In this document: positions 3,167-61,338 of the stretch, in pieces
Numbering within the stretch: position 1 is the stretch's first letter
Layout: every line of letters starts with the position of its first letter
IMG/VR virus record: IMGVR_UViG_3300021085_000009
Span: 1 to 64,000 of that record
DNA: 64,000 bases
Reading direction: 5' to 3' (one strand)
From: a virus
Made by a program: the position numbers and the translations under genes
Notes under the pieces: generated by a model
The model's database searches: none
Seen by the model: the letters and a program-made list of their open reading frames with translations, nothing else
What the model was told of the DNA's origin: nothing

Positions 3167-3475
3167 TTATTGCATTATTAACATTCCGGTAATAGTGGTT
3201 GCAGCTGCAGCCATTACTATCCAAAATATTTTATTAATTATATTAATTGTATTTGCATTGTTTACTACGATGCTTTCCACTTTGTCTATTCTATTTATAA
3301 GTAAAACAATCTGCTCTGATTGCTGTTTAGAAAATGACGTAAGTGTTTGAATCTTTTCTTCAGCTCTAGCAAGTGCAATAATTGCTTCAGACATTCTATC
3401 AATTTTTTCTTCTATTCTATCTAGTCTTAAAGCAGCTTCAGCTCTTTGTTGAGATGCGGTGTTGCTATTTGGCAT
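3167..3475 (-). CDS. Coiled-coil protein with C-terminal TM helix (XhlA-like architecture)
   Basis: RLDRIEEKIDRMSEAI heptads; hydrophobic C-terminus IFWIVMAAAATTITGMLIM. Confidence 0.5.
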   Translation of the reverse strand: MPNSNTASQQRAEAALRLDRIEEKIDRMSEAIIALARAEEKIQTLTSFSKQQSEQIVLLINRIDKVESIVVNNANTINIINKIFWIVMAAAATTITGMLIMQ

Positions 3476-3758
3476 GTTTTATAATCCTACAATGTAAGGT
3501 AGTTTTACCTTTTATTAGTCTGTGTCTTTCTCCTAATGGTATATAAAATACCATTCCCTTTTCTATCAGCCAAGGTAAACAATTTTCGTATTGAAATTGC
3601 CATCCTTCACCGTTTAATACTTCTACTTCTCTTAACTCTTTATCTGAGTGCCAAACATATTCTGCATCTTCTTTATCTAAGAAGAACGATCTTTCGATAG
3701 TAGTACTGTTTAATACACTATCGATATATGGATTACCAAAAATAGTCTCCACCACCTT
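3465..3758 (-). CDS. Conserved hypothetical cupin-like protein (true start uncertain, near 3755)
   Basis: VWHSD...GWQFQ...FYIP...HRLIKG cupin-like His pattern; upstream part of the listed ORF overlaps the next gene. Confidence 0.45.
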   Translation of the reverse strand, partial: KVVETIFGNPYIDSVLNSTTIERSFFLDKEDAEYVWHSDKELREVEVLNGEGWQFQYENCLPWLIEKGMVFYIPLGERHRLIKGKTTLHCRIIKHAK

Positions 3759-4101
3759 TAAGCCCCAAGTCCTTTGCATACTTTGGTAATCTACATGACC
3801 AGTATCCTGGTGATAGTTTATCCGTTTTAGTATCGCAGTTATGACGAGATGCAAAGTTTCTTGCAGCATCTCTATCGTTTATTTTAGAGGTTAAACCTCC
3901 CTTTTCGTCGCCAAAATTAATTTTCTTTACGTTTCCAGTTTTTGGATTCTTAACATATACAACATATTTCTTTGGGCCTGAGCTTCTGCTTGGTTTATTA
4001 AGTGCTGGCTCAGGAGCCTCGATCATAGGTTGCTCTAATGGAACATTCCTACCTTCGTATAGTCCAAATCTTTCATCGATGTGCTCTAAAAATTTATGCA
4101 T
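3733..4101 (-). CDS. Conserved basic protein, putative internal protein
   Basis: MHKFLEHIDE CTS-like start; KKYVVYVK..VKKINFG..FASRHNC..YWSC motif. Confidence 0.55.
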   Translation of the reverse strand: MHKFLEHIDERFGLYEGRNVPLEQPMIEAPEPALNKPSRSSGPKKYVVYVKNPKTGNVKKINFGDEKGGLTSKINDRDAARNFASRHNCDTKTDKLSPGYWSCRLPKYAKDLGLKGGGDYFW

Positions 4102-13001: not shown

Positions 13002-13664
13002 TTATACTATTTCGTTATAAGGGAACACTTTTGATATAACTTCACCACAAATTTTAGCAATCTCTATATGTTCTTTTTGAGTGCCGTGTGCTGACCTCAA
13101 TTGAATATAGTGAATCCATGATCTAAGAGTACCATTAACGTACATCCTACTCATAGTTAATCCTTCTGGTAATACTGCTCTGGCCTGCTCTTTTGCAATA
13201 CCAGCTTCAATAGCCCAATCATATGCTTGTCTGCACCTTTCGATTATTACTTCTTGGTACGATTCCCAAACATAATTAATAGAATCTTCTTGGTTTAATT
13301 CAATAGAATTCTGTCTATTTTTAGTATCTTGCATCCTAGCTTCTCTAGTGGTAAATTCTAAATCCTTAGTGGGATCAGCATACCTTTGAGAAAATTCTTG
13401 GAATGAAAAAGATCTGTGTCTTAAAATTTGTCGTGCGATATCTCGTGTAGTATTAATTTCCATACAAACTGATACCATTTCTAATGGAGACCAATGTTGA
13501 TTTTTAATTAAATACTTAACGAGTTTTTCTGATGTTTCATGACTTGTTTGGTTTCCAGGATTGGACACTCGAGCACAGTATGAAACTAATTGAAGAAGAT
13601 CCTCGCCCGTTGTCGGGGCGAGGTCCTCTGAGGGTTGCGAATATGATATAAGACTCACGTTCAT
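13002..13664 (-). CDS. thyX: Flavin-dependent thymidylate synthase
   Basis: HWSPLE, RQILRHRSFSFQEFSQRY signature, EQARAVLP, TQKEH. Confidence 0.95.
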   Translation of the reverse strand: MNVSLISYSQPSEDLAPTTGEDLLQLVSYCARVSNPGNQTSHETSEKLVKYLIKNQHWSPLEMVSVCMEINTTRDIARQILRHRSFSFQEFSQRYADPTKDLEFTTREARMQDTKNRQNSIELNQEDSINYVWESYQEVIIERCRQAYDWAIEAGIAKEQARAVLPEGLTMSRMYVNGTLRSWIHYIQLRSAHGTQKEHIEIAKICGEVISKVFPYNEIV

Positions 13665-15546: not shown

Positions 15547-16603
15547 CTTCCTCTGAAAGTACAGTGAAATCTTCGTCCATTGCAATTAATGGCTTCTGGC
15601 CAATTTGATAATGGCCTTTAATAAATTTCTTAAAATCAGTTCCTTCAAAAATTGGATTCCAAAATTCTTGATCAAGAGTATCTTTTTCTCTTACTTTTGG
15701 ATCTAACAACTCACCTGTTTCTCTATCAACTCTACAGTACCAACCATTGCTTGGTTTAGCAACATAATTTCCAGCTAGAGCTACATCGAGTAAGCCACTG
15801 TATTCTGAAATACCACCTTCCCATGTTACACTAATTGGAATCTTAGATTTTTCTTTTACAAACCTTGATTTTTCAACATTAACAACAAAGTCATATCCTT
15901 TAACTTCGGATCCTTTTTTGTTCTGCCTTCTACCAATAATCCAAATGTTATCAGCTGAATAGTAAATTCCAGTACCACCTGATACAACTGCTTTAGGAAA
16001 CAATCCAATTTCTTGGTATGTATGATTAACAGCAAGTAAAGGGATATTCTTCATAGTCAGATAAGGAGTGACCATTCTGAATAATCCCTTCAGTGCTTTA
16101 GCTCTTGACATATCAGCAACTGATTTTTCGTTTAATGCGTCTTCTAATTCTTTCTTAGAAGCTAAGTTACCAATAGAATCGATTACGACAATAACTTTAT
16201 CATCTCTTTCAATCGTATCTAATTGATTAACTAAATCAAACTTTAGTTGCTCTACGTCTGTGATTGGTGTGTGTAATACCCTTGAAACATCAATTCCAAA
16301 GGACTCAAAGTAAGATTGTGGTGAACCAAATTCTGAATCATAAAATAGCATAACTGCATCGTCATGTTCTTTCATATATGCTCCAGCCATCAATAAAGCA
16401 AACGAAGTTTTAAAATGTTTACTTGGACCAGCTAGAACTGTTAGACCAGATGATAAACCACCATCGACATCTCCTGAGAGTGCAACGTTTATCATTGGTA
16501 CACTTGTTGTAACTATATCCTTTTCACCAAAGTATATTGATTTTTCTAGAGTATCTGTACCTTTAATTCTAGAGTTCTTTTTAAGTTTGTCCATTATGCC
16601 CAT
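15536..16603 (-). CDS. uvsX: RecA-like recombinase UvsX
   Basis: AGPSKHFKT, FYDSEFG, DSIGNLASKKE, EKSRFVKEKS. Confidence 0.95.
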   Translation of the reverse strand: MGIMDKLKKNSRIKGTDTLEKSIYFGEKDIVTTSVPMINVALSGDVDGGLSSGLTVLAGPSKHFKTSFALLMAGAYMKEHDDAVMLFYDSEFGSPQSYFESFGIDVSRVLHTPITDVEQLKFDLVNQLDTIERDDKVIVVIDSIGNLASKKELEDALNEKSVADMSRAKALKGLFRMVTPYLTMKNIPLLAVNHTYQEIGLFPKAVVSGGTGIYYSADNIWIIGRRQNKKGSEVKGYDFVVNVEKSRFVKEKSKIPISVTWEGGISEYSGLLDVALAGNYVAKPSNGWYCRVDRETGELLDPKVREKDTLDQEFWNPIFEGTDFKKFIKGHYQIGQKPLIAMDEDFTVLSEEDDV

Positions 16604-16863
16604 TATTTTCCTCCTCGACCACGTTCAGGTCTTAATTGCATTGAGCGTTCTTTTTTGCGCCATCTGGCTAAAGCTTCTGCTTTTTTCCTTTTCTTTTTGG
16701 CTGTTGGTTTTTCGTAAAACTCTTTTCGTCTTACATCTTGAAGAGTTCCAGCTCTTTCAACTGCCTTTCTGAATTTTCTAAGAGCAACATCAAATGGCAT
16801 TTCTGATGCTGGCCTTTTATCTTTTGGGTGCCTCTTACGAGGTCTTAAATCTACACTTGGCAT
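16603..16863 (-). CDS. rpsU: Phage-encoded 30S ribosomal protein bS21
   Basis: [28 protein letters not shown] matches E. coli-type S21. Confidence 0.9.
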
Positions 16864-16887
16864 AGTTCTCCTTGTTTAATATAGTCT

Positions 16888-16916
16888 ATTATACCATATT
16901 TTGGTTTAATTGTACA
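16888..16916 (-). promoter_or_regulatory. TGTACA-N17-TATAAT promoter upstream of rpsU-uvsX
   Basis: Exact motif and spacing, extended TGG. Confidence 0.8.
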
Positions 16917-17743
16917 TGGTTAAATTGAATATTTTGTTCTTTTTCTCTTTCGTCTCTTTCATATTGAGATCTATACTTATTGTTTATCTCAATTGCTTTG
17001 GCCAAAAGAGAAAGTTCATCGCTGAACTTTGCAAAAGCCAAAGTATCTTTAGGAAAGCATGCACCGCCATATCCTTGCTTTCCATCAAATCCTGGAACCT
17101 TGGTATGGGAAGGTGCAATTCTATTATCAGCACCAACTGCTTTAATAATAGTATTGAAATTGACATCGCCGTTAGTTCTACATAGATCGTAGAGCTGATT
17201 AAAGAATGTAATCTTAGTTGCTAGGAATGAATTGATTGTGTATTTAACCAAAGAAGCTTCTTCATGGTTCATATGATAAGATGGGCATGGTGTACATAAA
17301 CTATATTTTTCGTAGAATTCTTCTAACCTTTTAGTATTATATATGTCTCCACCAAAGATATGAAACTCAGGATTTACAAATTGTTCACATGCAGACTTTT
17401 CTGTTAAAAATTCTGGATTATACACAACGTTATTCCAAAATTTATATTCAGCTATTACGTTTGGTGTAACAGTTGATTTAATAACAATTAGGGTTTCTTT
17501 TAAGCATTCATCAAGATTATCCATTACAGATTTTAAAATACTGCTATTGATATTACCGTCGTCGCCCATAGGTGTAGGAACACACACAAAAATTAAATCA
17601 GGTTTCCAATCTTTTAATTTGTATTGATCCTCGTTAGTATGACCATAGTTTGGATCTAAAATTTTCTTTTCTACTTGCTGATTGCTAAATCCATAATCAA
17701 CTGCTTTACCTACAAAGCCATGCCCTATAATTGCTAATCTCAT
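16889..17743 (-). CDS. UDP-glucose/GDP-mannose 6-dehydrogenase family (lacks the C-terminal domain)
   Basis: GHGFVG, CVPTP, IKSTV, NPEFL, GYGGACFPKD. Confidence 0.9.
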   Translation of the reverse strand: MRLAIIGHGFVGKAVDYGFSNQQVEKKILDPNYGHTNEDQYKLKDWKPDLIFVCVPTPMGDDGNINSSILKSVMDNLDECLKETLIVIKSTVTPNVIAEYKFWNNVVYNPEFLTEKSACEQFVNPEFHIFGGDIYNTKRLEEFYEKYSLCTPCPSYHMNHEEASLVKYTINSFLATKITFFNQLYDLCRTNGDVNFNTIIKAVGADNRIAPSHTKVPGFDGKQGYGGACFPKDTLAFAKFSDELSLLAKAIEINNKYRSQYERDEREKEQNIQFNHVQLNQNMV

Positions 17744-18537
17744 TATATATTACCATCCCAGTTTAAGTCTAATTGTTTCATTGTTTGCGTTTTATAATCA
17801 TCTTCTAATACATGGTGGTTTGCAACCCAACCAAATTTAGTTAAAATTGTTGGATCAGCACATGTATCTTGTCGTTCACCAGTAACTTCTTTTAGTGGTA
17901 AATTATTTTCTGGCCAAACTTTATCAGCCATTTCTTTTACTGTAACAGGTTTACCATTACCGACATCAATTGCTTTATTGTGAACTATCATATCAAAGTA
18001 TGTTATGCAAATATCTATTGCACTGCATACGTCATCAACATGAGTCCAATCTCTAGTGTGATTAGTTAGGTATGTTAACTTTGGATCTTTTCTTAAAAGC
18101 GCATCGTATAACATATCTTCTCTGCTATCAGGACCATACACCGTATGGAATCTTAATCCAATAGAATTCTTAGGTGCTATAGCTTCCATAGCATATTTTG
18201 TAGCAGCATAAGGTGATAACCACCATTCATAAACACTTGATGATGAAGCATATATGATTGGAACATTAGCCTTTTCGCATGCTTCAAAAATATACTTAGA
18301 TGCTTCTACATTAGTTTTCCAATATTCTTGTGGAATTTCATGCGATCTTCGAACTCCAGCCAAAGCTGCAAGGTGTATTACGAAATCAAAATCGCTTACA
18401 ATAATACCTTCTGCATTTCTAATATCTGCAGTGTACTCTACAATCTCATATTGATCACCATACTTTTTAGCAAACCTGCTTCCAATAAAACCCTTCCTTG
18501 GTCCACTTTTGCTTCCTGTTAATAATATTCTCATCAT
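17743..18537 (-). CDS. NAD-dependent nucleotide-sugar epimerase/dehydratase
   Basis: GFIG, HLAA, ASSSSVY, YAATK, RFHTVYG, RDWTHVDD. Confidence 0.9.
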   Translation of the reverse strand: MMRILLTGSKSGPRKGFIGSRFAKKYGDQYEIVEYTADIRNAEGIIVSDFDFVIHLAALAGVRRSHEIPQEYWKTNVEASKYIFEACEKANVPIIYASSSSVYEWWLSPYAATKYAMEAIAPKNSIGLRFHTVYGPDSREDMLYDALLRKDPKLTYLTNHTRDWTHVDDVCSAIDICITYFDMIVHNKAIDVGNGKPVTVKEMADKVWPENNLPLKEVTGERQDTCADPTILTKFGWVANHHVLEDDYKTQTMKQLDLNWDGNI

Positions 18538-19742
18538 AAAAATGCCTCCAAACTATTTTCTTCTCTTTTATAATCATAACTTCTGTTTAAATTGTTTTGA
18601 AATAAGTAACTTGTTTCAACACTATCTCTTTTACCTTCTAATACTGCTTTAACTTCTACTGCCATATCCCTTGCTGTTGCAAATGGAACGTTTTGGCAAA
18701 TATGATTGTAGTTCTTTTCTACATCTAGTACTTCCATATCTAAAGGTAATCCCATAATAGCTTTACCTTCAGCAACATTTAAGTATCTATCTTCAGTTGG
18801 ATGAGCAATAACCTTAGGTAAATGTACTACAAATGCTCCAATATAATTGATTGGAATAATTGTACCTCTAAGCATAATTCCACCGCCTGAAGCAATCTTA
18901 CCTGCTTTACGTCTAGCCTTTGCAGCTTCTCTTTCAAACTGAGGATATTGATCCATCCATTCAGCAAGTTTAAGATGATCATGACCTAGTTTCATTAACC
19001 TAGATTCTACATTAATAGATTTTTCTTCATGGGAATGCCTTTCAACAAATTCAGCATGAGTACATTTAGATTCAACTTCTAGGGTATACTTATAATATGG
19101 ATCATCCTGCGAAGGTGTCTTTTGGTTTAAAACTTGTGTTTGAAAGTTAGTGTTAACACCTTTAATTAGATCTTGAATCAATGGTCTTTCTTTATTATAA
19201 TAGTTAAACAGTGGGATCCTATCGTTAAATTCATCTTTCTTCCAAAAGAAAAAGAATGTTCTTTTACGATATTGTGGATTACCATGCTGTAAACTTTTAG
19301 TTAAATAAATCGAAAAGTTATAACCATTATCTTGGCCAATTTTATAGAGCTTTTCTCGCATAAACTTACCAATCTTTCCAGATAATCCTGGTGCGTTCTC
19401 ACCCCATAATACCTTTGGTTTAACTTCCTTTAAAACATATTCAGATGATTTTTCCATCCATTGGTTGTTTTCGTTTTGTTCTCCATGCGAATTATGATAA
19501 GTGCTCAATCCAGCACACGGACAAACTGAAGAGACAATGTCCACATTTTTCATTTTTTCGGACGTTTCATCTAAAATATGATACGGAATATCTTTTCCTT
19601 GTTCCTTATAATAATTTAAAAGGTGTGTTTCATTAGCCATAAATCCAGAATATGTCATTAAATATTCTGGGTCTGTTCCATAAGCATCTGCTGATGCCAA
19701 AATTTCACCACCAATTAGTGGTACTATACCTGCGTGTTTCAT
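18534..19742 (-). CDS. C5-cytosine DNA methyltransferase-fold protein with atypical motif I
   Basis: Motif IV CPCAG, VI ENAP, VIII PQYRKR, IX HPTEDRYL..E, X QNVP; motif I IVPLIGG instead of FxGxGG. Confidence 0.75.
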   Translation of the reverse strand: MKHAGIVPLIGGEILASADAYGTDPEYLMTYSGFMANETHLLNYYKEQGKDIPYHILDETSEKMKNVDIVSSVCPCAGLSTYHNSHGEQNENNQWMEKSSEYVLKEVKPKVLWGENAPGLSGKIGKFMREKLYKIGQDNGYNFSIYLTKSLQHGNPQYRKRTFFFFWKKDEFNDRIPLFNYYNKERPLIQDLIKGVNTNFQTQVLNQKTPSQDDPYYKYTLEVESKCTHAEFVERHSHEEKSINVESRLMKLGHDHLKLAEWMDQYPQFEREAAKARRKAGKIASGGGIMLRGTIIPINYIGAFVVHLPKVIAHPTEDRYLNVAEGKAIMGLPLDMEVLDVEKNYNHICQNVPFATARDMAVEVKAVLEGKRDSVETSYLFQNNLNRSYDYKREENSLEAFL

Positions 19743-20572
19743 CCGAAAAATGTCTCCAAACTTGATTCTTGTTGTTTTTTAATTGCATCTTTATAAGCTT
19801 TTGACCAGCTAATATGACAAGTAATTCTGTCTTGTCCTTTCCATGGTCCATTAGCCAATACCTTGCTTTTTAGAGCGACGTAATCTGGATAAATTTCAGC
19901 TAATTGCTGATGCACTTTATTACTTAATTCGATTGTTCTATAATTTGAACAACCACCTGCAGTGTTAGTCGCTGTTACGCTAACACGATACCTTGTGGTA
20001 ATCCTATTTGCAAACCCTTGAGTAAGCAATTGAAGATTAGCATCAAAATCTTGAGAAGTTTCTAACCTATCCCATATAAGATTTCTTGGTAAATTTTTAG
20101 AATCAAAATAACAGTTAGTCATAATCCTTACGTTATTTTGATGTGGCCAATACTTTAGATCTGGTACAACCCAAGATGTTGAGAATCCGCCATGATAAAT
20201 TTTTTCTTCTTTTATCCATTTGTCGAATGTAGCAAAAGCGTCATCAAACTCTTCTTCTGTCATATCCTTGGTTTCCCATTTAGTGTCCATACCTTCAGGT
20301 GCTGGGCCTTTGTATTTAAAATACTCAAAGTCATCATCTAAAACCATATGTCTTGTACTATAAAACTCATCCCATATCCACTGTCGTGTTGGCGACAACC
20401 TAGAAATTTCCTTAGGTAGTTTTACTACAGCATCTCCGTATCGCTCTCTCATAGGAGCGTACTCATGATCCTGAACTATAAATTTTACCAGTTTTTGATA
20501 TTTCTCTGGTAAGTTATCATAAGTTCTTTGTTTGTCCATCCTACCTAATGTAGGTATAATTAAGTGTTCCAT
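19739..20572 (-). CDS. GT-A fold DNA glycosyltransferase (TAGT/beta-glucosyl-hmC-type)
   Basis: IPTLGR, RQWI, VLDDD, QDFDANLQLL, GGCS; inside hmC cluster. Confidence 0.75.
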   Translation of the reverse strand: MEHLIIPTLGRMDKQRTYDNLPEKYQKLVKFIVQDHEYAPMRERYGDAVVKLPKEISRLSPTRQWIWDEFYSTRHMVLDDDFEYFKYKGPAPEGMDTKWETKDMTEEEFDDAFATFDKWIKEEKIYHGGFSTSWVVPDLKYWPHQNNVRIMTNCYFDSKNLPRNLIWDRLETSQDFDANLQLLTQGFANRITTRYRVSVTATNTAGGCSNYRTIELSNKVHQQLAEIYPDYVALKSKVLANGPWKGQDRITCHISWSKAYKDAIKKQQESSLETFFG

Positions 20573-20872
20573 TTATCCTCCGTTCACTAAGTGCATTACT
20601 AAATTTTTAATTAGTAAAAATAATCCAGCACCATTTAATAAAATAAGTGCTCTATCTTTCCATAAGACTGATACTATTAACCATAGAAATATTCCTATAA
20701 TGCTAAGTCCTAAGTCCCATAATTGAAATCCTTCGACACCTCGTAAAGACATTGCAGCTAAAACCACAACTGAAGCTATCCATTTTATATACCAATCTAA
20801 AGTATACTTTGGTGTTGCCGATTTAAAAATTCTTTTTGAATTAGCTAATTCTTCTTCGCTATAATCACTCAT
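20573..20872 (-). CDS. Small three-TM membrane protein
   Basis: DWYIKWIAS..LWKDRALILLN, hydrophobic helices. Confidence 0.6.
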   Translation of the reverse strand: MSDYSEEELANSKRIFKSATPKYTLDWYIKWIASVVVLAAMSLRGVEGFQLWDLGLSIIGIFLWLIVSVLWKDRALILLNGAGLFLLIKNLVMHLVNGG

Positions 20873-21140
20873 CCTTTGAGATTTCTCCTGTGTATTGAAA
20901 TTCGCCTTTATCGAATCGTACTTTATATTCTTTTACAATTTCACCAAGCATGTTCTGTTTATCTTGAACTACTGATTCTAATGTACCATTAAATCTATTA
21001 GTGTCATTTAATATATGCAATTTGCTTAAGGACTTTTGTAAGCTTTCAATATGATTTTCTAAATCTTCTTTATTGTAATCTTTAAACTTAGGGTTTCTTC
21101 TGTTTTTCTTATACAGTAACTGTTCATTAAATGAAGTCAT
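20865..21140 (-). CDS. Hypothetical protein
   Basis: 91-aa ORF overlapping both neighbours. Confidence 0.5.
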   Translation of the reverse strand: MTSFNEQLLYKKNRRNPKFKDYNKEDLENHIESLQKSLSKLHILNDTNRFNGTLESVVQDKQNMLGEIVKEYKVRFDKGEFQYTGEISKDE

Positions 21141-21606
21141 ATATTATACCAACCTCCTTTAATAAATCAACCGTGTTAATTGCTGATATCTTCCATTTGT
21201 CTGGTACATCTGCAACTGTCTTAGGTGATACTACCCTCTTAACTCCAACTTGAGCTAATCCCTTTGCACATTCATTACAAACTGGTAAACCCCAAACATA
21301 CATTGTAGCGTTGTTTAGAGATGCTCCAGTAAATGTAGCATTATAGATACAATTCATTTCTGCATGAACTACATAGCGATATTTTACTTCTTTATCGTTG
21401 TATCTTTCAAGTGAATCATTAACACCTCTAGGGAAACCATTATAGCCTTGTGCTAATACTTGTCCCTTTTCTCCAATAGCAACTGCACCTACTTGAGTAC
21501 TTGGATCTTTTGACCAAGTTGAAACTTCCCTAGCTAGGTTTAAGTATCTATTGTCCCATTTATTGCTCATCGCTTCAAACTTCGGGAATTCCCATTTATT
21601 GCTCAT
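21127..21606 (-). CDS. cd: dCMP deaminase
   Basis: SKDPSTQVGA, GYNGFPRG, HAEMN, PVCNECAK. Confidence 0.92.
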   Translation of the reverse strand: MSNKWEFPKFEAMSNKWDNRYLNLAREVSTWSKDPSTQVGAVAIGEKGQVLAQGYNGFPRGVNDSLERYNDKEVKYRYVVHAEMNCIYNATFTGASLNNATMYVWGLPVCNECAKGLAQVGVKRVVSPKTVADVPDKWKISAINTVDLLKEVGIIYDFI

Positions 21607-21608
21607 CG
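21554..21608. repeat. 19-bp direct repeat (36-bp period) duplicating the dCMP deaminase start
   Basis: tcccatttattgctcatcg at 21554-21572 and 21590-21608, giving MSNKW..MSNKW. Confidence 0.9.
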
Positions 21609-22268
21609 GTTTACCAAATTAAAATGTCTTTCGTACACATGTAAGTTTTGTACTTGCCAAACAATATCACCTGGAAATACTTTTAGCATATACGCCATAT
21701 CATCAAGTACTGCTTTCTGCCATGCATAATCATTACGATAACCAAAGATAACATCATTAGATCGCATTTGTACAACACAATCGAGTTTACCTTCACGGAT
21801 ATAATATGTAACAGAGTTTGTACATATAAAATCGTTTTTACCATTTTCGTTATATTCACACCATATACTTGGTCTTGTATAGATCATTGATGCTCTACGC
21901 GAATCTGGGTTTTGTAACAATTCAGATAGTGCCATATCAAATTGTGCACCGTATTTGTCTGAATAAATTAAATGACCATAGTTTGAATTGATTTCGCCAT
22001 GTTCATTAGCAGTCATCTTCCATGCTGCAGGTGGTTCTTTATCGCTATCCAAATAGATATCATTAATGTTTGTAGATTGGCTGTTGTACCAATTTAGTTC
22101 TGCATCAATGTAAGCTTTGTTTGGAACACCAAATATAGCTGGTTCATCAGCATAAAACGAAGCACCAATTAACTCGATTGTTTTACTGCCATTTCTGTCT
22201 ACAGTAAATCTTTCATTACGAAGTTCGTTGTGAAAATAAGTTCTTAGTTGGTCGATTTCAAGATTCAT
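21603..22268 (-). CDS. 42: dCMP hydroxymethylase (T4 gp42-like thymidylate synthase homolog)
   Basis: INSNYG, DSRRA, DFICTN, MRSNDVIFGYRNDYAW (Asp specificity residue as in gp42), LHVYERHF. Confidence 0.85.
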   Translation of the reverse strand: MNLEIDQLRTYFHNELRNERFTVDRNGSKTIELIGASFYADEPAIFGVPNKAYIDAELNWYNSQSTNINDIYLDSDKEPPAAWKMTANEHGEINSNYGHLIYSDKYGAQFDMALSELLQNPDSRRASMIYTRPSIWCEYNENGKNDFICTNSVTYYIREGKLDCVVQMRSNDVIFGYRNDYAWQKAVLDDMAYMLKVFPGDIVWQVQNLHVYERHFNLVNR

Positions 22269-22596
22269 TTTTGTTCCTATTTAAAAAGTCATTGTCTTCT
22301 GATTGGCCGTCGATACCACCTCTCATATATGCAACCATAAATGAAGCATAGTTAATTAAATCTTTACCAGAGTCTTCTAGTGATTCAAAGTTTGGGTTAT
22401 AGTCGGGATCTGATTCCATAGCTTCTAGAACTGAGAACATTCTGAGAGTTTTAGCATGGATAATATCCAGGATTGAAGCTACACCGCGAGGGTAGTAATC
22501 TGCTTGTTTAATTCTGGAGTTTGGATTTTGATAGTCATTACTTTTCTTTGCCTGAAGTTCGGCACATTCTTGTAATACTTTTAGTGATTCTTTCAT
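22258..22596 (-). CDS. Nucleotide-modification-associated alpha-helical protein (DUF1599-like)
   Basis: KKSNDY, ESLEDSGKDLINYA; first gene of the modification operon. Confidence 0.6.
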   Translation of the reverse strand: MKESLKVLQECAELQAKKSNDYQNPNSRIKQADYYPRGVASILDIIHAKTLRMFSVLEAMESDPDYNPNFESLEDSGKDLINYASFMVAYMRGGIDGQSEDNDFLNRNKNES

Positions 22597-22622
22597 AATA
22601 TAACCTTTCTGTTTATAGTACT

Positions 22623-22651
22623 ATTATACCATAGTTTTGTTCAATTGTACA
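22623..22651 (-). promoter_or_regulatory. TGTACA-N17-TATAAT promoter of the DNA-modification operon
   Basis: Exact motif and spacing. Confidence 0.8.
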
Positions 22652-22663
22652 CACTTTTTTTGA

Positions 22664-23083
22664 TTATTTTGGTTGATATATAATACCTTGCTCATTTAGA
22701 GCTTGCTTATTCCACAAGTGTCCTTGTTCAGTATCATCCTTAGATTGACCAAAATATGGTACTGCATGGAACTCATCAATCATTTGCTGATTAACACTTA
22801 CTGGATTGTCTCCAATAAATAATTCACCAAGGATTCTACCAAATTTACCTTTATCATGTGATACTAATTTAACCTTTTGATCTTTAAGTTTTTCTACAAG
22901 ATGAGCTTTACTTGCTTTACCATAGAACTTTTCTTCTAAATTTCTAGTTCTGGATTCTGGAGTATCAATACCCATCATACGAACTCTCTGTTTTCTATAA
23001 GACATACCAAAACCTAAGTCGATATCTACGTCGACCGTATCTCCGTCTACTATTCTTGTTACCTTTACACTGTATGTATACAT
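22664..23083 (-). CDS. Thermonuclease (SNase-like)
   Basis: VDGDTVD, RMMGIDTPE, GKFGRILG. Confidence 0.85.
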   Translation of the reverse strand: MYTYSVKVTRIVDGDTVDVDIDLGFGMSYRKQRVRMMGIDTPESRTRNLEEKFYGKASKAHLVEKLKDQKVKLVSHDKGKFGRILGELFIGDNPVSVNQQMIDEFHAVPYFGQSKDDTEQGHLWNKQALNEQGIIYQPK

Positions 23084-55574: not shown

Positions 55575-55757
55575 TTAACTTGTAAATAATACAGCATGCG
55601 CATCTTGTACCAGCTGTAACTTATCACTAACATCTGCTCCTGCAACTAAGATGTCCTGCGAATTATCACTATAATCTATTTGCATGGTAGCAGGTGCTTC
55701 AGTTGGCACTGTTCTATCAGGATGCCATGCTATATGTGTTACTGTTTTACTTGACAT
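55575..55757 (-). CDS. Small hypothetical protein after tail fibre
   Basis: 60-aa ORF overlapping the fibre stop. Confidence 0.5.
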   Translation of the reverse strand: MSSKTVTHIAWHPDRTVPTEAPATMQIDYSDNSQDILVAGADVSDKLQLVQDAHAVLFTS

Positions 55758-58700
55758 TTTTTATTTCCTTTATTTCTTGTTTCAAGTCTTTTACTTGTTG
55801 TGTTAATTCTTTTACTGCCTCTACTAGTAATGCAGTAGTATTTCCATACTTGACACCGTATTGATCAACGTCTTCTGCATAAGTTACCAACTCAGGTGCA
55901 ACTTCATTTACGTCTTGAGCGATAAAACCAATTTCCTTTGTTTTACTTTCATCGTCAATTCTGTTATAATACACACCTTCTAGCTTATTTACTTTTTCTA
56001 AAGCATTATCTATTTGAACGATGTTTTCTTTAACTCTTCTATCAGAATACGCAGTTATATTTCCAGTTGCGTAAAATGATCCGGTTAGATAAGCTCCGTA
56101 ACTTGATGAAGTAGTCGATTCGTTAAGGCCCAAGCAATTATTGCCAACATGGAAATAGTAGTACCACCCACCACCAGATTGTCTATACGCACCTCCATTA
56201 CCAGAGCCGTCAAACATGATTGCTGCATCACCACCATTATCAAATACAATACCGTCATAACCACCTCTACTACCAGAAGTACACCAAGAGCCATAAGAAG
56301 TTACAGTATTTGCTTTAAAGGTAGCGCTGTTCGCGTTACCAATTAAATTACCTGTTAACTTCATGTTGCCTATCACATGAAGTTTCTCACTAGGATCTAT
56401 AGACTGAAAACCTGGCCCGATTCCTACGTTATTATGATCAACAACAAAGCCATCGGTAGGTCTTGAAATACTTGCAGGTTCTCCATTATATCCTGTAGCA
56501 ATGTGTATTCTACCATTTGAGTTTGCGGCCCAAATGCGAAGTTCAGCATCTGCATCATCGTGTTGTCGTATACCAGTATGCCAAGAATCAACTGCCCCAA
56601 ATACAATAGAGCCTTCATAGTTGCCAGCATTCATATTAAGTTGACCAGCAATGGTTACATTATTCAATAAACTACTAGTAGGTGGATTTAAGTAGTAAGC
56701 CGTGTTTTCATTCATATACAAATGACCGTTTGTAGTCTTTTGTAAATCCCACGACCCCCAAGTATTATCTAAGAAACCATAATTAGTGCCATCACCATAT
56801 AATTGGAATCTAAATTGATCAGATCCATTTCTGACAAGTAAACCAGCAGTTCCACTAGCATGTGTTCTAATTTCTGTATTATTGGCATTGTTTCTTCTTA
56901 GAATATGAGATTCAGAATTATCTGCTCCAACTGCTATGTATCTACATCCTGAAATATAGTTATTATTCATAACTATCTGGCCATATAACCAGTTAGTTCC
57001 GTTTGAATATACACCACTTGGATGCCATGACGCACTTCCAGTTCCACCTACGTTACCATTTCCTTGATAACCATAAGCCTGCATTCTACCATGCGTTTTT
57101 AGTGTCTGTGTACCGACGCTATTAAAATCTGTTGTTGGGCTTTTAGTAAATACTGATGAGCTCGTACTTTGTGTTACGGCCCAATCTCCGGTATAATCAA
57201 TAGAACCAACATAAAAATCATCTGCTCCTGATACACTTGATACACGAACCGTTCCATAAGACCAGCTAGATGCAGGCTCTCCAATGACCATAACTCTTTT
57301 ATTTACTGAGCCATTATTTCTCCAGCCAAAGTAGATTGGTTTGTCCATATCACCAATAACTTTTACACCAACGTTATGCCACATCGTAGAACCTGTGTTG
57401 CCGTTACCACCTGAGTTCCAGTTATGTCCACCTACAATAATCTTAGTAGCATTTTTACCACTATATTCGTATACGTCAACTTCAAAGTATAACATATCGT
57501 AGTTAGCCAATGTACCTGGTAAATCAATAACAATCTGACCAGTAGTCGTACCACTTCCAGCCCATGCTGCGGCTGCTCCAGGAATTACTCTTTTAGGATG
57601 CGTTGTGTTTCCTAATCCTATGTTACCTTCAGGGCCTACATGAATAGTACCTCTCATAACAAGGGAATTATCATTGGTTGATAGATCCATATAATAGCCA
57701 GTATCATCTATGTCATAAAATGCGGCTGATCTCATATCAGCTAATGAGCACACTCTACCGCTCGAAGCTTCTAACCAAACTCTGGCATCACCATCAGCAG
57801 CAACGTACATTCCCCAATTACCAGTATTTAATCCACCGGTTATGTATCCCGCACTTGCACTTGCATATCCAACACCATACATATTACCCAATGCAGTAGA
57901 ACTAGGATTGTAAGCAGAGCCTATGGTATAAATTGGATTTGAGTTGGTGCCATTGGAACCAACGTTATTGTATGTGCCTTCTAAATGCCCACTGTGATGT
58001 GCTAATCGAGTAAGATTGGCATTGGCGGATAAGCGTAAATCACCGGTAAGAGTCATCTCACCACTACTCATGTTTTGAATCATGGTATTTACGCCACTAG
58101 CATTTCTAAAGATAGTTTCTGACGATGATTGTATATACCAGTTATTAGCATGGTATTGCATCTTGCCTGCAACTTCACCAGACCAAGTGCCAGAGTCCTG
58201 TCTCCAATCACCTATAGTCTTTAATGAATTTCCACCTTGTGCAGACGGGTTTAAGAAGTAGGCACTATTATTTCTATCATAAAATGCATCTGCGTCGACA
58301 CTACCCACTACTTTTAAAGCAGAGAAGAACACATTTTTATAATTATCACCAGAGTAACTACCCCATCTCTGCATTCCAGACCAAGCACCTGTACCTATTG
58401 TTTCTGATAGATACAGGGGAACACCACCGCCGTGATCGTGCTTATGGAATTTATGAGCCCAAGTATTATTGTTATAAGATGAGCCACCATATCTCATGAT
58501 GAGACCTACTGTACTAGAGTTAGCACCACCTGTGTTTTCAGCTCCAACCTTTACACTAATTGAATCAAGGAACGAAGTACTGGCAGGATTTAAATAATAG
58601 TTTGCATTGTTACTGTCATAGAATGTAGATGCATATACCGATCCTGCAGAGGATATATTTCCGTTATGTCCATCCAGCCACACTCTGCCTGTGCCATTAG

Positions 58701-61338
58701 CCGCGACATACATGCCCCAGTCAGTCGCGCCGGCAAGCGCTGTATTCATCAGAGACGCACTATAAGTGGTATAACCAATACCGTACATACCACTAATCGA
58801 TGCATCTGTAGGATTATAAGAAGATCCTATAGTATAGATTGGACTTGATTTGCCACCGCTGCTCCCTACGTTATTATAGCCACCAACAAGGTGCCCAGTG
58901 TGATGGCTTAATCTGCCATATCCAGACCCCAGTGTATTATTAGAAAACCGCCATGTTTGATCTACATACATATGGCCATTATTATCTGGATGAATTTGGA
59001 ATATAGTACTACCGTTTTGGGCATACATTCGCATTCCACCTTCCCATCCGTTGGAGTGCGATTTAATAGTGAATCTTTCAGTGGCCTCTTTGACCATTTC
59101 ACCAGTACCAAGTAATGTTAAGTTAGTTGTGCCACTAACTCCGCCATCTTTGAATACAATATTTTCTCCGCCTGATGTAGCAATTCTTAAATGGCCACCT
59201 TCTTGAGCATCAATAAATCCTCTTTCAGTGGAAATACCATCACCGCTGGTTGTGTGGAATTTTATAGGAGAGCCATGGAATACATCGATACCTTGACCAA
59301 CTACTGCTCTACCTGTAGTACCCATAGTTCCGTTAGGATCTTCGTTAACTTCCATAGCAGTTGTTTCGTGAATAGTATATCCACTTGGCAATCCATTTTC
59401 AACTGATGTTGGTATTGTTGCTCTGCCCCAACCAGATCTACCAAAACCTAATTGTTTTATTTTTAGAGTATACGAGGTATTCCAGTTAGTCATATAAACT
59501 TGAAGTTTACCAGTACCGTATGTTCTGTCAGCAGTATTATATAACATACGCACTTGATTTATAGTGCGGTTACCGTGTCTTACAGCATTAAGAATTTGAA
59601 TTGAACCCTGACCATATGACCATGCCGCTTCTATTTTCACATAGTTGTGTCTGCTACTCTCATTATCATATATTTCTATAATATCGGCTTTACGAGATCC
59701 GGTAAAGTTTGCAACAGTTACCCATTGATTATTAGCGGCTCCACTTAGACTTACAGTATCTCCGCTACTTAACTCAACTCCAGCAATACTTGCATAACCT
59801 GGAATGATTGCATTACCTGCAACATTTAATGATGTTCCAGTTGATGATGGATCTAAATAATAATTAGCATTGTCAGAATCATAAAAGACTGGTGCTCGGA
59901 AAGACCCTACAGATTCTGTATAAGGAACTTCACCAAAATAGAATCTTCCACTAAGTTCTTGCATATATGCAGTTCGTGCAGTACCAGTATGGAAAGAGAT
60001 ATAAGGATTACCGGTATCGTAAACAGCAAGGTTACCTGCGCTTGTCAATGTTGAAGTTGTTCCTCCTTGTACCTTAGGAGATGCTAACATACTAACAGTA
60101 CTAAATTTTCCGGCATTATCAAGCTGAGCTTTTTCTGAAGTACCAGTAAAGAATTTTAAACTATTACGATAGTAAATGCTCATTCTATCTTGGTCTGCAA
60201 AGTTATCCCATGCTCCCTCTGTTATTCCAAGAGGGCTAGAAGTTGTAGTATCGCCGAAGTGGAGTTCTCCACCTTGAGCCATACGAATTCGTTTAATAGC
60301 ACCAGTAGAATAAGTTCCTATCTCAGTAGTATTATCTGATTTACCTGCCAAACTACCATTTACTGTTAAGTTTCCACTAATTGCAACATTAAACTGATTA
60401 AATGTAACAGAACCAGTTGAACCAGTTCCAGTTAGATCAAATTCAAAAGTATTAGACCCAGTTCCTTTAATTTCTAATGCATTATTGCCAGTATCGTATA
60501 TTACTAAAGAACCAGGTTGTGAATTAGTATGTCCTAGCATTAATGACCCATATAGCTTTGAACTACCTACAGGGTCTACATAAAAATCTGTGTTTGAAGA
60601 ATCGTAAAAGACACTAGCTCTCATGTCAGAGGCTGATGAAATTCTTGATCTTGTCGATGATACTACACCGGTATGGTCAATCTTTAAAGCAGTTTTTGAA
60701 CCTGATCCATATGAGTCTGTAGTTGAAAGATACATTTTAGTACCATAACTACCATCCGATCTTACATAGATACCTGCATGTGCATTTGTGCCATCTGATG
60801 TGTCTGAAGCGCCAAATGTAATAGCACCACCGGCGTGATCGGTAGCACTGTTTGGATCAAGGTGAAGTGACCCTGTTCCCCCGCCCTGGGTTGTCTCACT
60901 CCATACTTGAGAATAATGGAGATTTAGTTTAATCATCTCAGAAGTAGCTGCAGGATTTGTGTAATATGCTGTATTGTCAAGGTCTCTGAATGTCGTACCA
61001 TCAACACCACTTGCATTAGCTTTTAAAAAGATTAAAGCTGGATTTGCGTAACCTGTATTATCAACTTGAAGGCCTTGAGAATTAATATAAAGGGTAGAAC
61101 TATTTCCATTACCAATACGAGTCTTCCATGAGTTAATACTAGTACTAGTTATACCTTGATATAGATAGCCACCCGCTCTAACAGACATATCACCATTCAC
61201 CTCAAGCTTGAGGTTAGTAGAGTCCATTGCGGATTTAGCTTGGTTTATAGCGACGGATGGAACGCTTTGAATGTTACCACCGGCATCGACTACTAATATG
61301 CCATTAACTTCTAATCCGTCACCGGTTCTAAATGCCAT
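55747..61338 (-). CDS. Long tail fibre with C-terminal intramolecular chaperone (peptidase S74)
   Basis: G/S/N/T-rich repeats; YSDRRVKENI..GFIAQ..LLVEAVKEL. Confidence 0.88.
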   Translation of the reverse strand: MAFRTGDGLEVNGILVVDAGGNIQSVPSVAINQAKSAMDSTNLKLEVNGDMSVRAGGYLYQGITSTSINSWKTRIGNGNSSTLYINSQGLQVDNTGYANPALIFLKANASGVDGTTFRDLDNTAYYTNPAATSEMIKLNLHYSQVWSETTQGGGTGSLHLDPNSATDHAGGAITFGASDTSDGTNAHAGIYVRSDGSYGTKMYLSTTDSYGSGSKTALKIDHTGVVSSTRSRISSASDMRASVFYDSSNTDFYVDPVGSSKLYGSLMLGHTNSQPGSLVIYDTGNNALEIKGTGSNTFEFDLTGTGSTGSVTFNQFNVAISGNLTVNGSLAGKSDNTTEIGTYSTGAIKRIRMAQGGELHFGDTTTSSPLGITEGAWDNFADQDRMSIYYRNSLKFFTGTSEKAQLDNAGKFSTVSMLASPKVQGGTTSTLTSAGNLAVYDTGNPYISFHTGTARTAYMQELSGRFYFGEVPYTESVGSFRAPVFYDSDNANYYLDPSSTGTSLNVAGNAIIPGYASIAGVELSSGDTVSLSGAANNQWVTVANFTGSRKADIIEIYDNESSRHNYVKIEAAWSYGQGSIQILNAVRHGNRTINQVRMLYNTADRTYGTGKLQVYMTNWNTSYTLKIKQLGFGRSGWGRATIPTSVENGLPSGYTIHETTAMEVNEDPNGTMGTTGRAVVGQGIDVFHGSPIKFHTTSGDGISTERGFIDAQEGGHLRIATSGGENIVFKDGGVSGTTNLTLLGTGEMVKEATERFTIKSHSNGWEGGMRMYAQNGSTIFQIHPDNNGHMYVDQTWRFSNNTLGSGYGRLSHHTGHLVGGYNNVGSSGGKSSPIYTIGSSYNPTDASISGMYGIGYTTYSASLMNTALAGATDWGMYVAANGTGRVWLDGHNGNISSAGSVYASTFYDSNNANYYLNPASTSFLDSISVKVGAENTGGANSSTVGLIMRYGGSSYNNNTWAHKFHKHDHGGGVPLYLSETIGTGAWSGMQRWGSYSGDNYKNVFFSALKVVGSVDADAFYDRNNSAYFLNPSAQGGNSLKTIGDWRQDSGTWSGEVAGKMQYHANNWYIQSSSETIFRNASGVNTMIQNMSSGEMTLTGDLRLSANANLTRLAHHSGHLEGTYNNVGSNGTNSNPIYTIGSAYNPSSTALGNMYGVGYASASAGYITGGLNTGNWGMYVAADGDARVWLEASSGRVCSLADMRSAAFYDIDDTGYYMDLSTNDNSLVMRGTIHVGPEGNIGLGNTTHPKRVIPGAAAAWAGSGTTTGQIVIDLPGTLANYDMLYFEVDVYEYSGKNATKIIVGGHNWNSGGNGNTGSTMWHNVGVKVIGDMDKPIYFGWRNNGSVNKRVMVIGEPASSWSYGTVRVSSVSGADDFYVGSIDYTGDWAVTQSTSSSVFTKSPTTDFNSVGTQTLKTHGRMQAYGYQGNGNVGGTGSASWHPSGVYSNGTNWLYGQIVMNNNYISGCRYIAVGADNSESHILRRNNANNTEIRTHASGTAGLLVRNGSDQFRFQLYGDGTNYGFLDNTWGSWDLQKTTNGHLYMNENTAYYLNPPTSSLLNNVTIAGQLNMNAGNYEGSIVFGAVDSWHTGIRQHDDADAELRIWAANSNGRIHIATGYNGEPASISRPTDGFVVDHNNVGIGPGFQSIDPSEKLHVIGNMKLTGNLIGNANSATFKANTVTSYGSWCTSGSRGGYDGIVFDNGGDAAIMFDGSGNGGAYRQSGGGWYYYFHVGNNCLGLNESTTSSSYGAYLTGSFYATGNITAYSDRRVKENIVQIDNALEKVNKLEGVYYNRIDDESKTKEIGFIAQDVNEVAPELVTYAEDVDQYGVKYGNTTALLVEAVKELTQQVKDLKQEIKEIKNVK

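Follow-up and report, generated by a model that had tools for sequence, protein, structure and literature searches.

Introduction

The hypermodifications of phage DNA decide which restriction, CRISPR, and glycosylase defenses are escaped, and they also supply enzymes for DNA labeling. According to PMC13216743 and PMC13390438, the TAGT-family glycosyltransferases of phages T2 and T6 add a second glucose to α-glucosyl-5-hydroxymethylcytosine, and PMC13216743 describes a solitary TAGT in 288 of 753 phages. A 2023 preprint (bioRxiv 10.1101/2023.12.21.572611) outlines the reconstitution of metagenomic phage clusters that combine a C5-methyltransferase (C5-MT), a 5mYOX/TET enzyme, a glycosyltransferase (GT), and an epimerase. 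The glycosylation of 5-hydroxymethylcytosine itself has long been known, and solitary TAGTs and glycodiverse cytosines are subjects of current work. As outlined in the preprint, the contig 57 cluster yielded hexuronic-acid-5-hydroxymethylcytosine (433 amu), and its GT-A enzyme needed the epimerase of the cluster. The survey of approximately 25,000 contigs in the same preprint included thymidylate-synthase-associated contigs with deaminases, epimerases, and methyltransferases. In the present study, we analyzed the first 64 kb (the window) of the 136.8-kb IMG/VR virus record IMGVR_UViG_3300021085_000009, which is estimated to be 76% complete, and focused on a cassette of nine open reading frames (ORFs) at 16889–22596 on the minus strand. 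The cassette includes genes for a homolog of T4 dCMP hydroxymethylase (gp42), a dCMP deaminase, a TAGT, a C5-cytosine-methyltransferase-fold enzyme (the MTase-like enzyme), a short-chain dehydrogenase/reductase (SDR), and a short UDP-glucose-dehydrogenase-like enzyme (UGD).

A preliminary description of this stretch had proposed a promoter-bounded cytosine hypermodification operon that makes its own sugar donor. The eight genes that it named are all present on the minus strand, with one extra ORF of 91 aa besides. The results obtained indicate that the cassette is very probably a cytosine hypermodification unit for the production of glycosylated 5-hydroxymethylcytosine (hmC). The proposal that the sugar is a hexuronic acid made by the phage itself, most likely galacturonate, is the best reading of the cassette, with evenly balanced odds.

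Results

Hydroxymethylase and its T4-like position

The gp42 homolog (21603–22268, minus strand, as are all cassette genes) belongs to PF00303 (E 1e-17). Among PDB entries, its residues 3–220 matched the T4 dCMP hydroxymethylase structures 1b49, 1b5d, and 1b5e at E 2.4e-69, whereas the next solved thymidylate synthase entries (9iqu and 9iqc) reached only E 8.5e-12. The protein is 51% identical to T4 gp42. In the alignment, Asp146, Cys149, Asp172, and Asp180 correspond to Asp145, Cys148, Asp171, and Asp179 of T4 gp42 and to positions 143, 146, 169, and 177 of Escherichia coli ThyA. The catalytic Cys is thus present, Asp occupies ThyA position 177, and the residue at position 143 is acidic. As outlined in PMC13326640 (2026), Asp at position 177 confers dCMP specificity, the acidic residue at position 143 gives access to water, and RB69-type homologs, which make 5-hydroxy-dCMP, are marked by Asn at position 169. 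A 5-hydroxycytosine reading was rejected because position 169 is Asp and not Asn. Among 26 distinct relatives, at least 95% share this Asp with the window enzyme, which led us to read the protein as a true hydroxymethylase that is predicted to make 5-hydroxymethyl-dCMP, not 5-hydroxy-dCMP.

The source appears from its gene content to be an uncultured marine T4-like phage, with UvsX, a gp41-type helicase, gp45, gp47, and a family-B polymerase. Its nearest deposited relative is phage C48C1 (UvsX identity of 75%). As in T4 (43 ... 42, β-gt, uvsX, 40, 41), the genes run in the order polymerase ... 42, glycosyltransferase, uvsX, gp40-like, helicase. By this order, the unit occupies the T4 gene 42/glycosyltransferase/uvsX slot. 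The cytosine hypermodification unit of the preliminary description was supported.

TAGT as the probable first transferase

The TAGT (19739–20572, 277 aa) is a GT-A DNA glycosyltransferase with 66.2 bits to PF20691 (cut-off of 27.5) and a match to phrog_842 at E 8.4e-36. The DDD motif of the GT-A fold (Asp79–Asp81) was invariant in eight TAGT sequences. The protein is 22–28% identical to named phage TAGTs, and its identity to deposited phage proteins nowhere exceeds 28%. It is the only recognizable DNA glycosyltransferase in the record, with a single PF20691 match. The record, which is incomplete, did not contain PF11440, and tblastn with T4 α-gt and β-gt gave no match. The second-transferase role of T2 and T6 on α-glucosyl-hmC does not fit the window TAGT because no α-GT partner was found. 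With neither an α- or β-GT nor a second TAGT found, the TAGT must be the first transferase and, on the evidence of its gene set, should act directly on hmC, similar to solitary TAGTs.

A different view is that the SDR, UGD, and glycosyltransferase modify a protein, lipid, or polysaccharide and that the part of the cassette concerned with DNA is limited to gp42, the deaminase, and the MTase-like enzyme. Pairs of UGD and 4-epimerase are ordinary polysaccharide genes in bacteria, which counts for this explanation. Moreover, according to the preprint 10.1101/2023.12.21.572611, approximately 65% of the approximately 25,000 viral contigs with related GTs lack a nearby base-modification gene. However, the window protein passes the Pfam TAGT family and PHROG 842, which were defined on DNA glycosyltransferases, and its gene is located between gp42 and a DNA C5-MTase-fold gene in a promoter-bounded unit and in the T4 β-gt slot. 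Furthermore, a homolog of T4 DNA α-glucosyltransferase takes its place in a related cassette type (described below). We consider a target other than DNA to be very unlikely.

Association of putative donor genes with the transferase

A search with the TAGT found 22 viral loci. All 22 keep gp42, the deaminase, TAGT, the MTase-like gene, SDR, and UGD wherever the contig reaches. In a second T4-like lineage (67% TAGT identity), the genes are arranged as TAGT-SDR-UGD-MTase in a block next to gp45/gp44 and not uvsX. A search with UGD found at least 574 viral stretches, of which 80 were fetched and all their ORFs clustered, giving 74 distinct loci. A third cassette type was found with gp42, the deaminase, two radical-SAM genes, a 415-aa PF11440 protein, SDR, UGD, the MTase-like gene, and uvsX. 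Its transferase is a GT-B homolog of T4 DNA α-glucosyltransferase (PF11440 E 3e-32).

We then compared well-flanked loci, namely, 38 loci with distinct UGD sequences and at least 5 kb of upstream and 1.3 kb of downstream sequence. A DNA glycosyltransferase was present in 16 of the 38 (12 TAGT and 4 of the α-GT type) and absent from 22. The SDR adjoined UGD in all 16 loci with a DNA glycosyltransferase and in 7 of the 22 without one. Similarly, the MTase-like gene (16/16 versus 0/22), gp42 (16/16 versus 3/22), and the dCMP deaminase (16/16 versus 5/22) followed the transferase. The 16 loci cover three gene orders and two unrelated glycosyltransferase folds. Since the transferase was swapped for an unrelated fold and the block moved jointly, we argue that these genes form a functional unit.

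Other arrangements were also noted. A fourth cassette type (loci L058, L059, and L063) comprises gp42, UGD, SDR, and the deaminase, and has no recognizable transferase or MTase-like gene; it encodes three conserved proteins of 300–390 aa, one with a faint match to T4 β-glucosyltransferase (E 0.055). Radical-SAM genes occur in related cassettes at L018:4437–6383 (648 aa, B12-binding domain) and at L098:2218–2952 and 3207–4067 (both small). These genes hint at further chemistry on the base or sugar in sister lineages.

Putative sugar-donor enzymes

The SDR (17743–18537, 264 aa) is a compact protein of the UDP-glucuronate 4-epimerase type (PF01370 E 1.1e-22). Its three best PDB matches were the UDP-glucuronate (UDP-GlcA) 4-epimerase MoeE5 (6kv9), 5u4q, and 6zl6, with a best E of 6.6e-16. 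Full-length SDRs (314–317 aa) fill the same slot in two other cassette types; their E values were 1e-78 and 3e-71 against 5u4q and 9e-45 and 3e-39 against 6zl6, while the next families followed from approximately E 1e-30 and UDP-GlcA decarboxylases at E 3e-22. By alignment transfer, Ser98–100, Tyr110, Lys114, Thr132, and Arg139 of the window SDR correspond to Thr126/Ser127/Ser128, Tyr149, Lys153, Thr178, and Arg185 of 6zl6. Of these 6zl6 residues, Thr126/Ser127/Ser128, Thr178, and Arg185 are the ones that hold the carboxylate. According to PMC11519531, 6ZL6, 6ZLD, 6ZLJ, and 6ZLL are UDP-glucuronate 4-epimerase of Bacillus cereus. PMC12338863 describes Arg185 as holding the carboxylate of UDP-galacturonate (UDP-GalA), and its loss as turning the epimerase into a decarboxylase. 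The equivalent of Arg185 is kept, and UDP-GalA is therefore favored over UDP-xylose. The pentose (UDP-xylose) branch was rejected on this residue and on the far better match of the SDR relatives to the epimerase (E 9e-45) than to the decarboxylase (E 3e-22). Thus, the pentose sugar that the preliminary description had allowed as an alternative to an acidic one was not borne out.

UGD (16889–17743, 284 aa) consists of PF03721 (E 5.7e-15) and PF00984 (E 1.6e-18), with no other domain. Its 11 best PDB sequences were all UDP-glucose dehydrogenases (4a7p E 1.1e-25), and a GDP-mannose dehydrogenase ranked twelfth. The motif of the catalytic Cys229 and other active-site residues were invariant in six sequences. 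The protein stops where the C-terminal UDP-binding domain should begin, and this short form (271–319 aa) is the rule among its relatives. Its TIGR03026 score was 141.8 bits, below the cut-off of 189.8, and NCBIfam equivalogs gave at most 120 bits against cut-offs of at least 459. In the absence of the UDP-binding domain, UDP-glucose as the substrate is not assured. Therefore, the name UDP-glucose dehydrogenase given in the preliminary description holds for the catalytic domains and the Cys and is weakened by the missing UDP-binding domain, the scores below the NCBIfam cut-offs, and the many relatives in loci without a GT. The proposal that the phage makes its own donor stands in a similar position. 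The SDR and UGD resemble the route from UDP-glucose through UDP-GlcA to UDP-GalA and are linked to a DNA glycosyltransferase, whereas the donor role itself is inferred, and the short dehydrogenase is best described as a putative donor supplier.

Weighing the origin of the sugar

Several observations weigh against a self-made hexuronic acid. The link between the transferase and donor genes rests on gene neighborhood, and the 16 loci with a transferase represent related phages in three arrangements and not independent events. The short UGD stands without any DNA glycosyltransferase in the 22 remaining well-flanked loci, and the stretches found with UGD often lack the SDR, a glycosyltransferase, the MTase-like gene, and gp42. 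The complete genomes C48C1 and G005 (157 kb, terminal repeats) carry UGD without PF11440 or PF20691, and C48C1, with the order SDR-UGD-uvsX, also lacks gp42. The window SDR is approximately 50 residues shorter than its full-length relatives, with 264 aa against a full length of 314–337 aa, and scores below every NCBIfam equivalog cut-off. The best PDB match of the full-length SDRs, 5u4q, was deposited as a dTDP-glucose 4,6-dehydratase. The UDP-binding domain PF03720 was absent from UGD and from the whole record, and the control genomes were positive (14/14). The third GT-A motif of the TAGT reads Gln-Asp-Phe and not Glu-Asp-Tyr/Phe as quoted for GT57. In addition, two partners of the hydroxymethylase, the gp56 dCTPase and gp1 kinase, had no match in the 76%-complete record, in protein searches that were silent in the controls too, and a thymidylate-kinase homolog was absent from the record in a family search with positive controls (14/14). 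The T-even route assumed in the preliminary description is weakened to the extent that it requires a dCTPase and an hm-dCMP kinase.

Many of these neighborhoods fit an explanation in which the DNA carries glucosyl-hmC. The glycosyltransferase would then use host UDP-glucose or another host donor, and UGD and SDR would be unrelated resident auxiliary genes, with the UDP-sugar pool or host envelope as their target, that happen to share the variable slot before uvsX. In most of the 74 distinct loci, the short UGD immediately precedes uvsX. The loci without a transferase, including C48C1, speak for the same view, and the neighbors of UGD in such loci are genes for a phosphomannomutase, a cupin, a nucleotidyltransferase-like protein (CTP_transf_like), and an asparagine-synthase-like protein. 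According to PMC13216743, the TAGT of T6 transfers glucose. However, UGD and SDR left uvsX in the second lineage, where they accompany the glycosyltransferase and the MTase-like gene next to gp45/gp44. The constant adjacency of SDR and UGD in loci with a transferase (against 7 of 22 elsewhere) and the two unrelated transferase folds in the same place beside SDR-UGD also disagree with a chance sharing of the slot. Moreover, UGD is present in all 12 well-flanked loci of this TAGT subfamily (at least 67% identity), and in only one of 33 loci whose MTase-like protein is less than 70% identical to that of the window; this one locus has a TAGT. We regard glucosyl-hmC as a real possibility, albeit not a probable one. 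A reasonable history is that a dehydrogenase that was already resident was drawn into the uronic-acid cassettes when an epimerase and a transferase were added to it.

In the complete 157-kb genome G005 (the record of locus L072), UGD follows the asparagine-synthase-like gene and the dCMP deaminase. The copy of the nucleotidyltransferase-like gene in our record (126299–126700) lies beside genes for PhoH and an NT5C-like hydrolase; as it may serve in NAD salvage, it was not used as evidence for a sugar pathway.

The missing UDP-binding domain would be explained if glucose were placed on hmC first and UGD, and perhaps the SDR, then acted on the DNA-bound sugar, for which this domain would be dispensable. 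The absence of PF03720 together with the invariant catalytic residues suits such an oxidation after transfer, as does the shortened window SDR. However, the same short UGD is found in phages without a glycosyltransferase or gp42, in which DNA-bound glucose is not expected, and the two other cassette types have full-length SDRs that match UDP-sugar epimerases from end to end. The literature searched gave no precedent. We consider oxidation after transfer to be very unlikely.

MTase-like enzyme

The MTase-like enzyme (18534–19742) is a divergent member of PF00145 (67.3 bits, cut-off of 22; E 2.1e-18). It keeps the catalytic Cys76, Glu115-Asn-Ala, and Gln157-x-Arg-x-Arg, and the motifs Pro-Cys, Glu-Asn-Ala, Gln-x-Arg-x-Arg, and Gln-Asn-Val-Pro are invariant in its family. 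The consensus motifs of C5-methyltransferases are Pro-Cys, Glu-Asn-x, and Gln-x-Arg-x-Arg. The best PDB match of the family profile was 8yf3 (CmoX; E 7.3e-10), followed by HaeIII and HhaI. In Foldseek, the predicted model matched M.HhaI (E 1.7e-11, TM 0.66 on the target), and the fold is also similar to that of M.HaeIII.

We aligned 24 distinct MTase-like sequences with CmoX, using numbering that was checked against PMC12783734. Phe48, Asp69, and Cys98 of CmoX were kept in all 24 sequences. Phe25, the Phe of motif I, was Leu in 24/24. The ribose-binding Glu47 was replaced by Gly (15), Asp (7), or Ala (2), which leaves 17 of the 24 without an acid. Arg350, which PMC12783734 equates with Asn304 of M.HhaI (motif X), was Gln in 23 of the 24. 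The family thus departs from the canonical SAM pocket (motif I Phe, motif II acid, motif X Asn), and the altered cofactor-contact residues indicate that it is neither CmoX nor a textbook methylase.

A search with this family found at least 592 viral stretches, of which 80 loci (L110–L189) were fetched. Where the upstream sequence spanned at least 6 kb, a gp42 homolog preceded the MTase-like gene in 40 of 42 loci, and it did so in 31 of the 33 divergent loci mentioned above. The gene directly before the MTase-like gene varies: it encodes a TAGT, an α-GT-like or GT4-like protein, a UDP-galactopyranose mutase accompanied by an epimerase of its own, an HMUDK-like protein that contains the helical domain of 5-hmdU DNA kinase, an inositol-1-phosphate-synthase-like protein, or unassigned proteins. 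As far as these neighborhoods tell, the MTase-like gene, to which the preliminary description gave no role, is the fixed element of gp42 cassettes among these phages and the cassette member most tightly tied to gp42, and the tailoring genes appear to vary. The presence of different donor genes beside the transferases of other cassettes of this kind, such as the mutase and epimerase, follows the same logic as SDR and UGD in the window.

Some further features of these loci were recorded. The genes for gp42, the DUF1599-like protein, and the deaminase are nearly always upstream. A protein of 290–313 aa is encoded downstream in 46 of the 55 loci with at least 3.5 kb of downstream sequence. Clamp genes are downstream in most of the MTase-like loci listed, and gp45/gp44 were confirmed for L018 only.

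The simplest guess is that the enzyme C5-methylates cytosines that escape replacement. It may well be an ordinary stand-alone 5-methylcytosine (5mC) methyltransferase for anti-restriction with no role in the hmC pathway, and we place this explanation just short of evenly balanced. The passing of PF00145, the similarity in fold to M.HhaI and M.HaeIII, and the invariance of the catalytic Cys, Glu, and Arg motifs and of the CmoX Phe48 and Asp69 equivalents all agree with it. Furthermore, since a dCTPase was not found, part of the C in the DNA may be unmodified. However, gp42 precedes the gene almost throughout, a tailoring gene usually lies directly before it, and the three cofactor-contact positions differ from those of both CmoX and the methylases. 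We also considered the enzyme to be an undescribed obligatory partner of pre-replicative hmC pathways and not a plain cytosine methylase. In this case, the Cys could activate 5hmC or its derivatives in DNA, or a non-methyl group could be transferred, perhaps with a cofactor other than SAM. Such a role is unlikely on present evidence; if true, doubly processed or mixed cytosine chemistry would be added on top of the uronic-acid sugar.

Nucleotide pool

The dCMP deaminase (21127–21606) belongs to PF00383 (E 9.5e-19) and phrog_174 (E 3.5e-43). A flavin-dependent thymidylate synthase, ThyX (13002–13664, minus strand), is encoded outside the cassette with PF02511 at 13020–13592 (E 3.3e-42), in agreement with the separate dTMP supply noted in the preliminary description. 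With ThyX elsewhere in the window, the deaminase can, by analogy with cd in T4, supply dUMP for dTMP synthesis.

The DUF1599-like protein (22258–22596, 112 aa) matched PHROG 18404 (E 4.5e-12) and 1485, and its gene adjoins gp42 in most relatives. The protein did not match any Pfam family, including PF07659, even at E≤1. Its link to DUF1599 is that 20 of its 30 Atlas matches fall in a set in which 48% of the members carry PF07659. The AlphaFold2 model (pLDDT 84.7) is all-helical with four helices. With a MazG-type dCTPase in mind, Foldseek was run against PDB and gave nothing significant for this model (best E 1.5), and dCTPase chains appeared only at ranks 14 and 44. The protein is a candidate nucleotide-pool enzyme by position only.

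A TET/5mYOX enzyme was also sought: PF12851 gave no match in the record, with the control silent too, and no ORF of a suitable size was left over in the cassette.

Cassette borders, remaining ORFs, and occurrence

Neighboring ORFs of the cassette overlap or have zero gaps. Between the deaminase and TAGT are two small ORFs. One is an orphan of 91 aa (20865–21140) with no family match; it is 71–81% identical in near relatives and absent from the lineages with 77% and 67% identity. The other (20573–20872) encodes a hydrophobic DUF6552 protein of 99 aa (PF20189 E 9.1e-19), which is the small membrane protein of the preliminary description and is kept in the 77% lineage.

The promoter motif TGTACA-N17-TATAAT, with a TG extension (TGG ahead of the −10 element), occurs ten times in the window against 0.11 expected, and none of 100 shuffles reached ten. 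Nine of the ten copies are on the coding strand, nearly all window genes being on the minus strand. The sites are 12913, 16888, 22623, 25528, 28100, 32033, 33493, 35983, and 39435 on the minus strand and 39681 on the plus strand. One copy (22623–22651) lies upstream of the first cassette gene, and another (16888–16916) overlaps the last UGD codons and starts the next unit (ribosomal protein S21 and uvsX); there is no copy between them. The claim of a promoter-bounded unit is thus confirmed. Both flanking copies are included in a direct repeat of 51 nt (22621–22671 and 16886–16936, 80% identical), which is longer than any other in the region. A generic sigma-70 scan was not above chance (48 sites versus 44.4 ± 7.0). 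The motif probably represents the early or middle promoter class of the phage. The gene for ribosomal protein S21 (16603–16863, minus strand; PF01165 E 5.1e-15; phrog_21469) lies between the cassette and uvsX behind its own motif copy.

At least 13 studies of marine or seawater metagenomes contained the stretch nearly letter for letter. Three metatranscriptome libraries (Logan) had contigs that covered 30/30 bins in two runs and 23/30 in the third, which is not proof of transcription. A DNA contig of run X4 joins 16873 to 22614 with ten other letters between and skips the whole cassette. This joint has 20 letters on one side only and sits on the 51-nt repeat; the contig may be a cassette-less relative or an artifact, and it was not used as evidence.

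An ORF of 1863 aa is located at 55747–61338 of the window (minus strand). The far part of the record (G000), beyond the window, encodes a RimK-like ATP-grasp protein (123215–124639), an NT5C-like nucleotidase (125632–126222), a CTP_transf_like nucleotidyltransferase (126293–126739), and a class-3 lipase (135979–136776).

Discussion

We propose the following mechanism for the cassette. dCMP would be hydroxymethylated and, after phosphorylation by a kinase, 5hm-dCTP would be built into phage DNA. The dehydrogenase would oxidize UDP-glucose to UDP-GlcA, which the epimerase would convert to UDP-GalA. The glycosyltransferase would then attach the hexuronic acid to hmC in DNA through its hydroxymethyl group, and the product would be 5-(hexuronosyl-oxymethyl)cytosine, an acidic base with a nucleoside mass of approximately 433 Da. 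The resulting DNA may block host nucleases, and the MTase-like enzyme may belong to the same pathway family. The preliminary description had suggested a potentially undescribed base. However, the preprint 10.1101/2023.12.21.572611 already reports hexuronic-acid-5hmC (433 amu); therefore, the proposed product is not a new kind of base.

If this mechanism is true, T4-like phages that abound in the sea would join the classical gp42 route to an acidic sugar donor of their own making, and their glycosylated DNA would be negatively charged. They would also be a natural source for hexuronic-acid-5hmC, which so far has been seen in reconstituted clusters only. Moreover, two widespread families depart from their textbook definitions, namely, UGD without the UDP-binding domain (at least 574 stretches) and the gp42-linked C5-MTase-fold enzyme (at least 592).

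Among known systems, the T-even glucosylation of hmC shares the gp42 ortholog with the same active-site residues, the slot between gene 42 and uvsX, and a transferase in the Pfam family of the T6 enzyme (β-glucosyl-HMC-α-glucosyltransferase). In contrast, the window phage has no α- or β-GT match, no gp56 or gp1 was found within the limits given above, and its cassette contains its own donor genes and the MTase-like gene. The arabinosyl-5-hydroxycytosine systems of RB69 and DLP3, as outlined in PMC13326640, are also T4-like and cluster a thymidylate-synthase homolog with DNA GTs and their own NDP-sugar pathway. However, they have Asn at ThyA 169, make 5-hydroxy-dCMP, and draw their arabinose pathway from other enzyme families. 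Bacillus phage SP-15 similarly encodes a UGD among glycosyltransferases, and this UGD was assigned to a DNA base that bears glucuronate. With 436 aa, the SP-15 enzyme has the full length, and it is 29.5% identical to the window UGD; the SP-15 base is a uracil derivative with phosphoglucuronolactone and not hmC, and there is no 4-epimerase.

The individual enzymes may be compared in the same manner. The SDR keeps the Ser/Tyr/Lys set and carboxylate residues of the B. cereus epimerase UGAepi (6ZL6/6ZLD/6ZLL) and MoeE5 and is paired with a UGD-family gene, while it differs from UGAepi in its compact length, its scores below the NCBIfam cut-offs, and a UGD partner without PF03720. CmoX, the C5-carboxymethyltransferase of Synechococcus phage S-B43 (PDB 8YF3), is the best PDB match of the MTase-like family and shares its fold, Cys, Phe48, and Asp69. 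The window family has Val-Cys-Pro-Cys and not SPPC, and Gln in place of the carboxymethyl-binding Arg350; by the criteria outlined in PMC12783734, we rejected its identity as CmoX. CmoA/CmoY-type genes were not found by Pfam in the cassette, to which this comparison was confined.

Literature searches, with supplementary tables beyond their reach, did not reveal a paper describing a cassette of gp42, TAGT, UGD, and 4-epimerase. The subclass II clusters of the 2023 preprint, compared by their description, are similar in the C5-MT-fold gene, the GT-A enzyme with a DDD motif, the partner epimerase, and the product hexuronic-acid-5hmC. They differ in that the 5hmC of the window phage is expected before replication from gp42 and not from a C5-MT and TET. 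The window cassette also adds a dehydrogenase, and the phage would therefore not depend on host UDP-GlcA. We suggest that the features new to this locus are the combination of the pre-replicative gp42 route with a GT-A transferase and a complete, putatively self-encoded UDP-GalA branch, the dehydrogenase without its UDP-binding domain, and the apparently tight joining of gp42 cassettes to a remodeled C5-MTase-fold enzyme.

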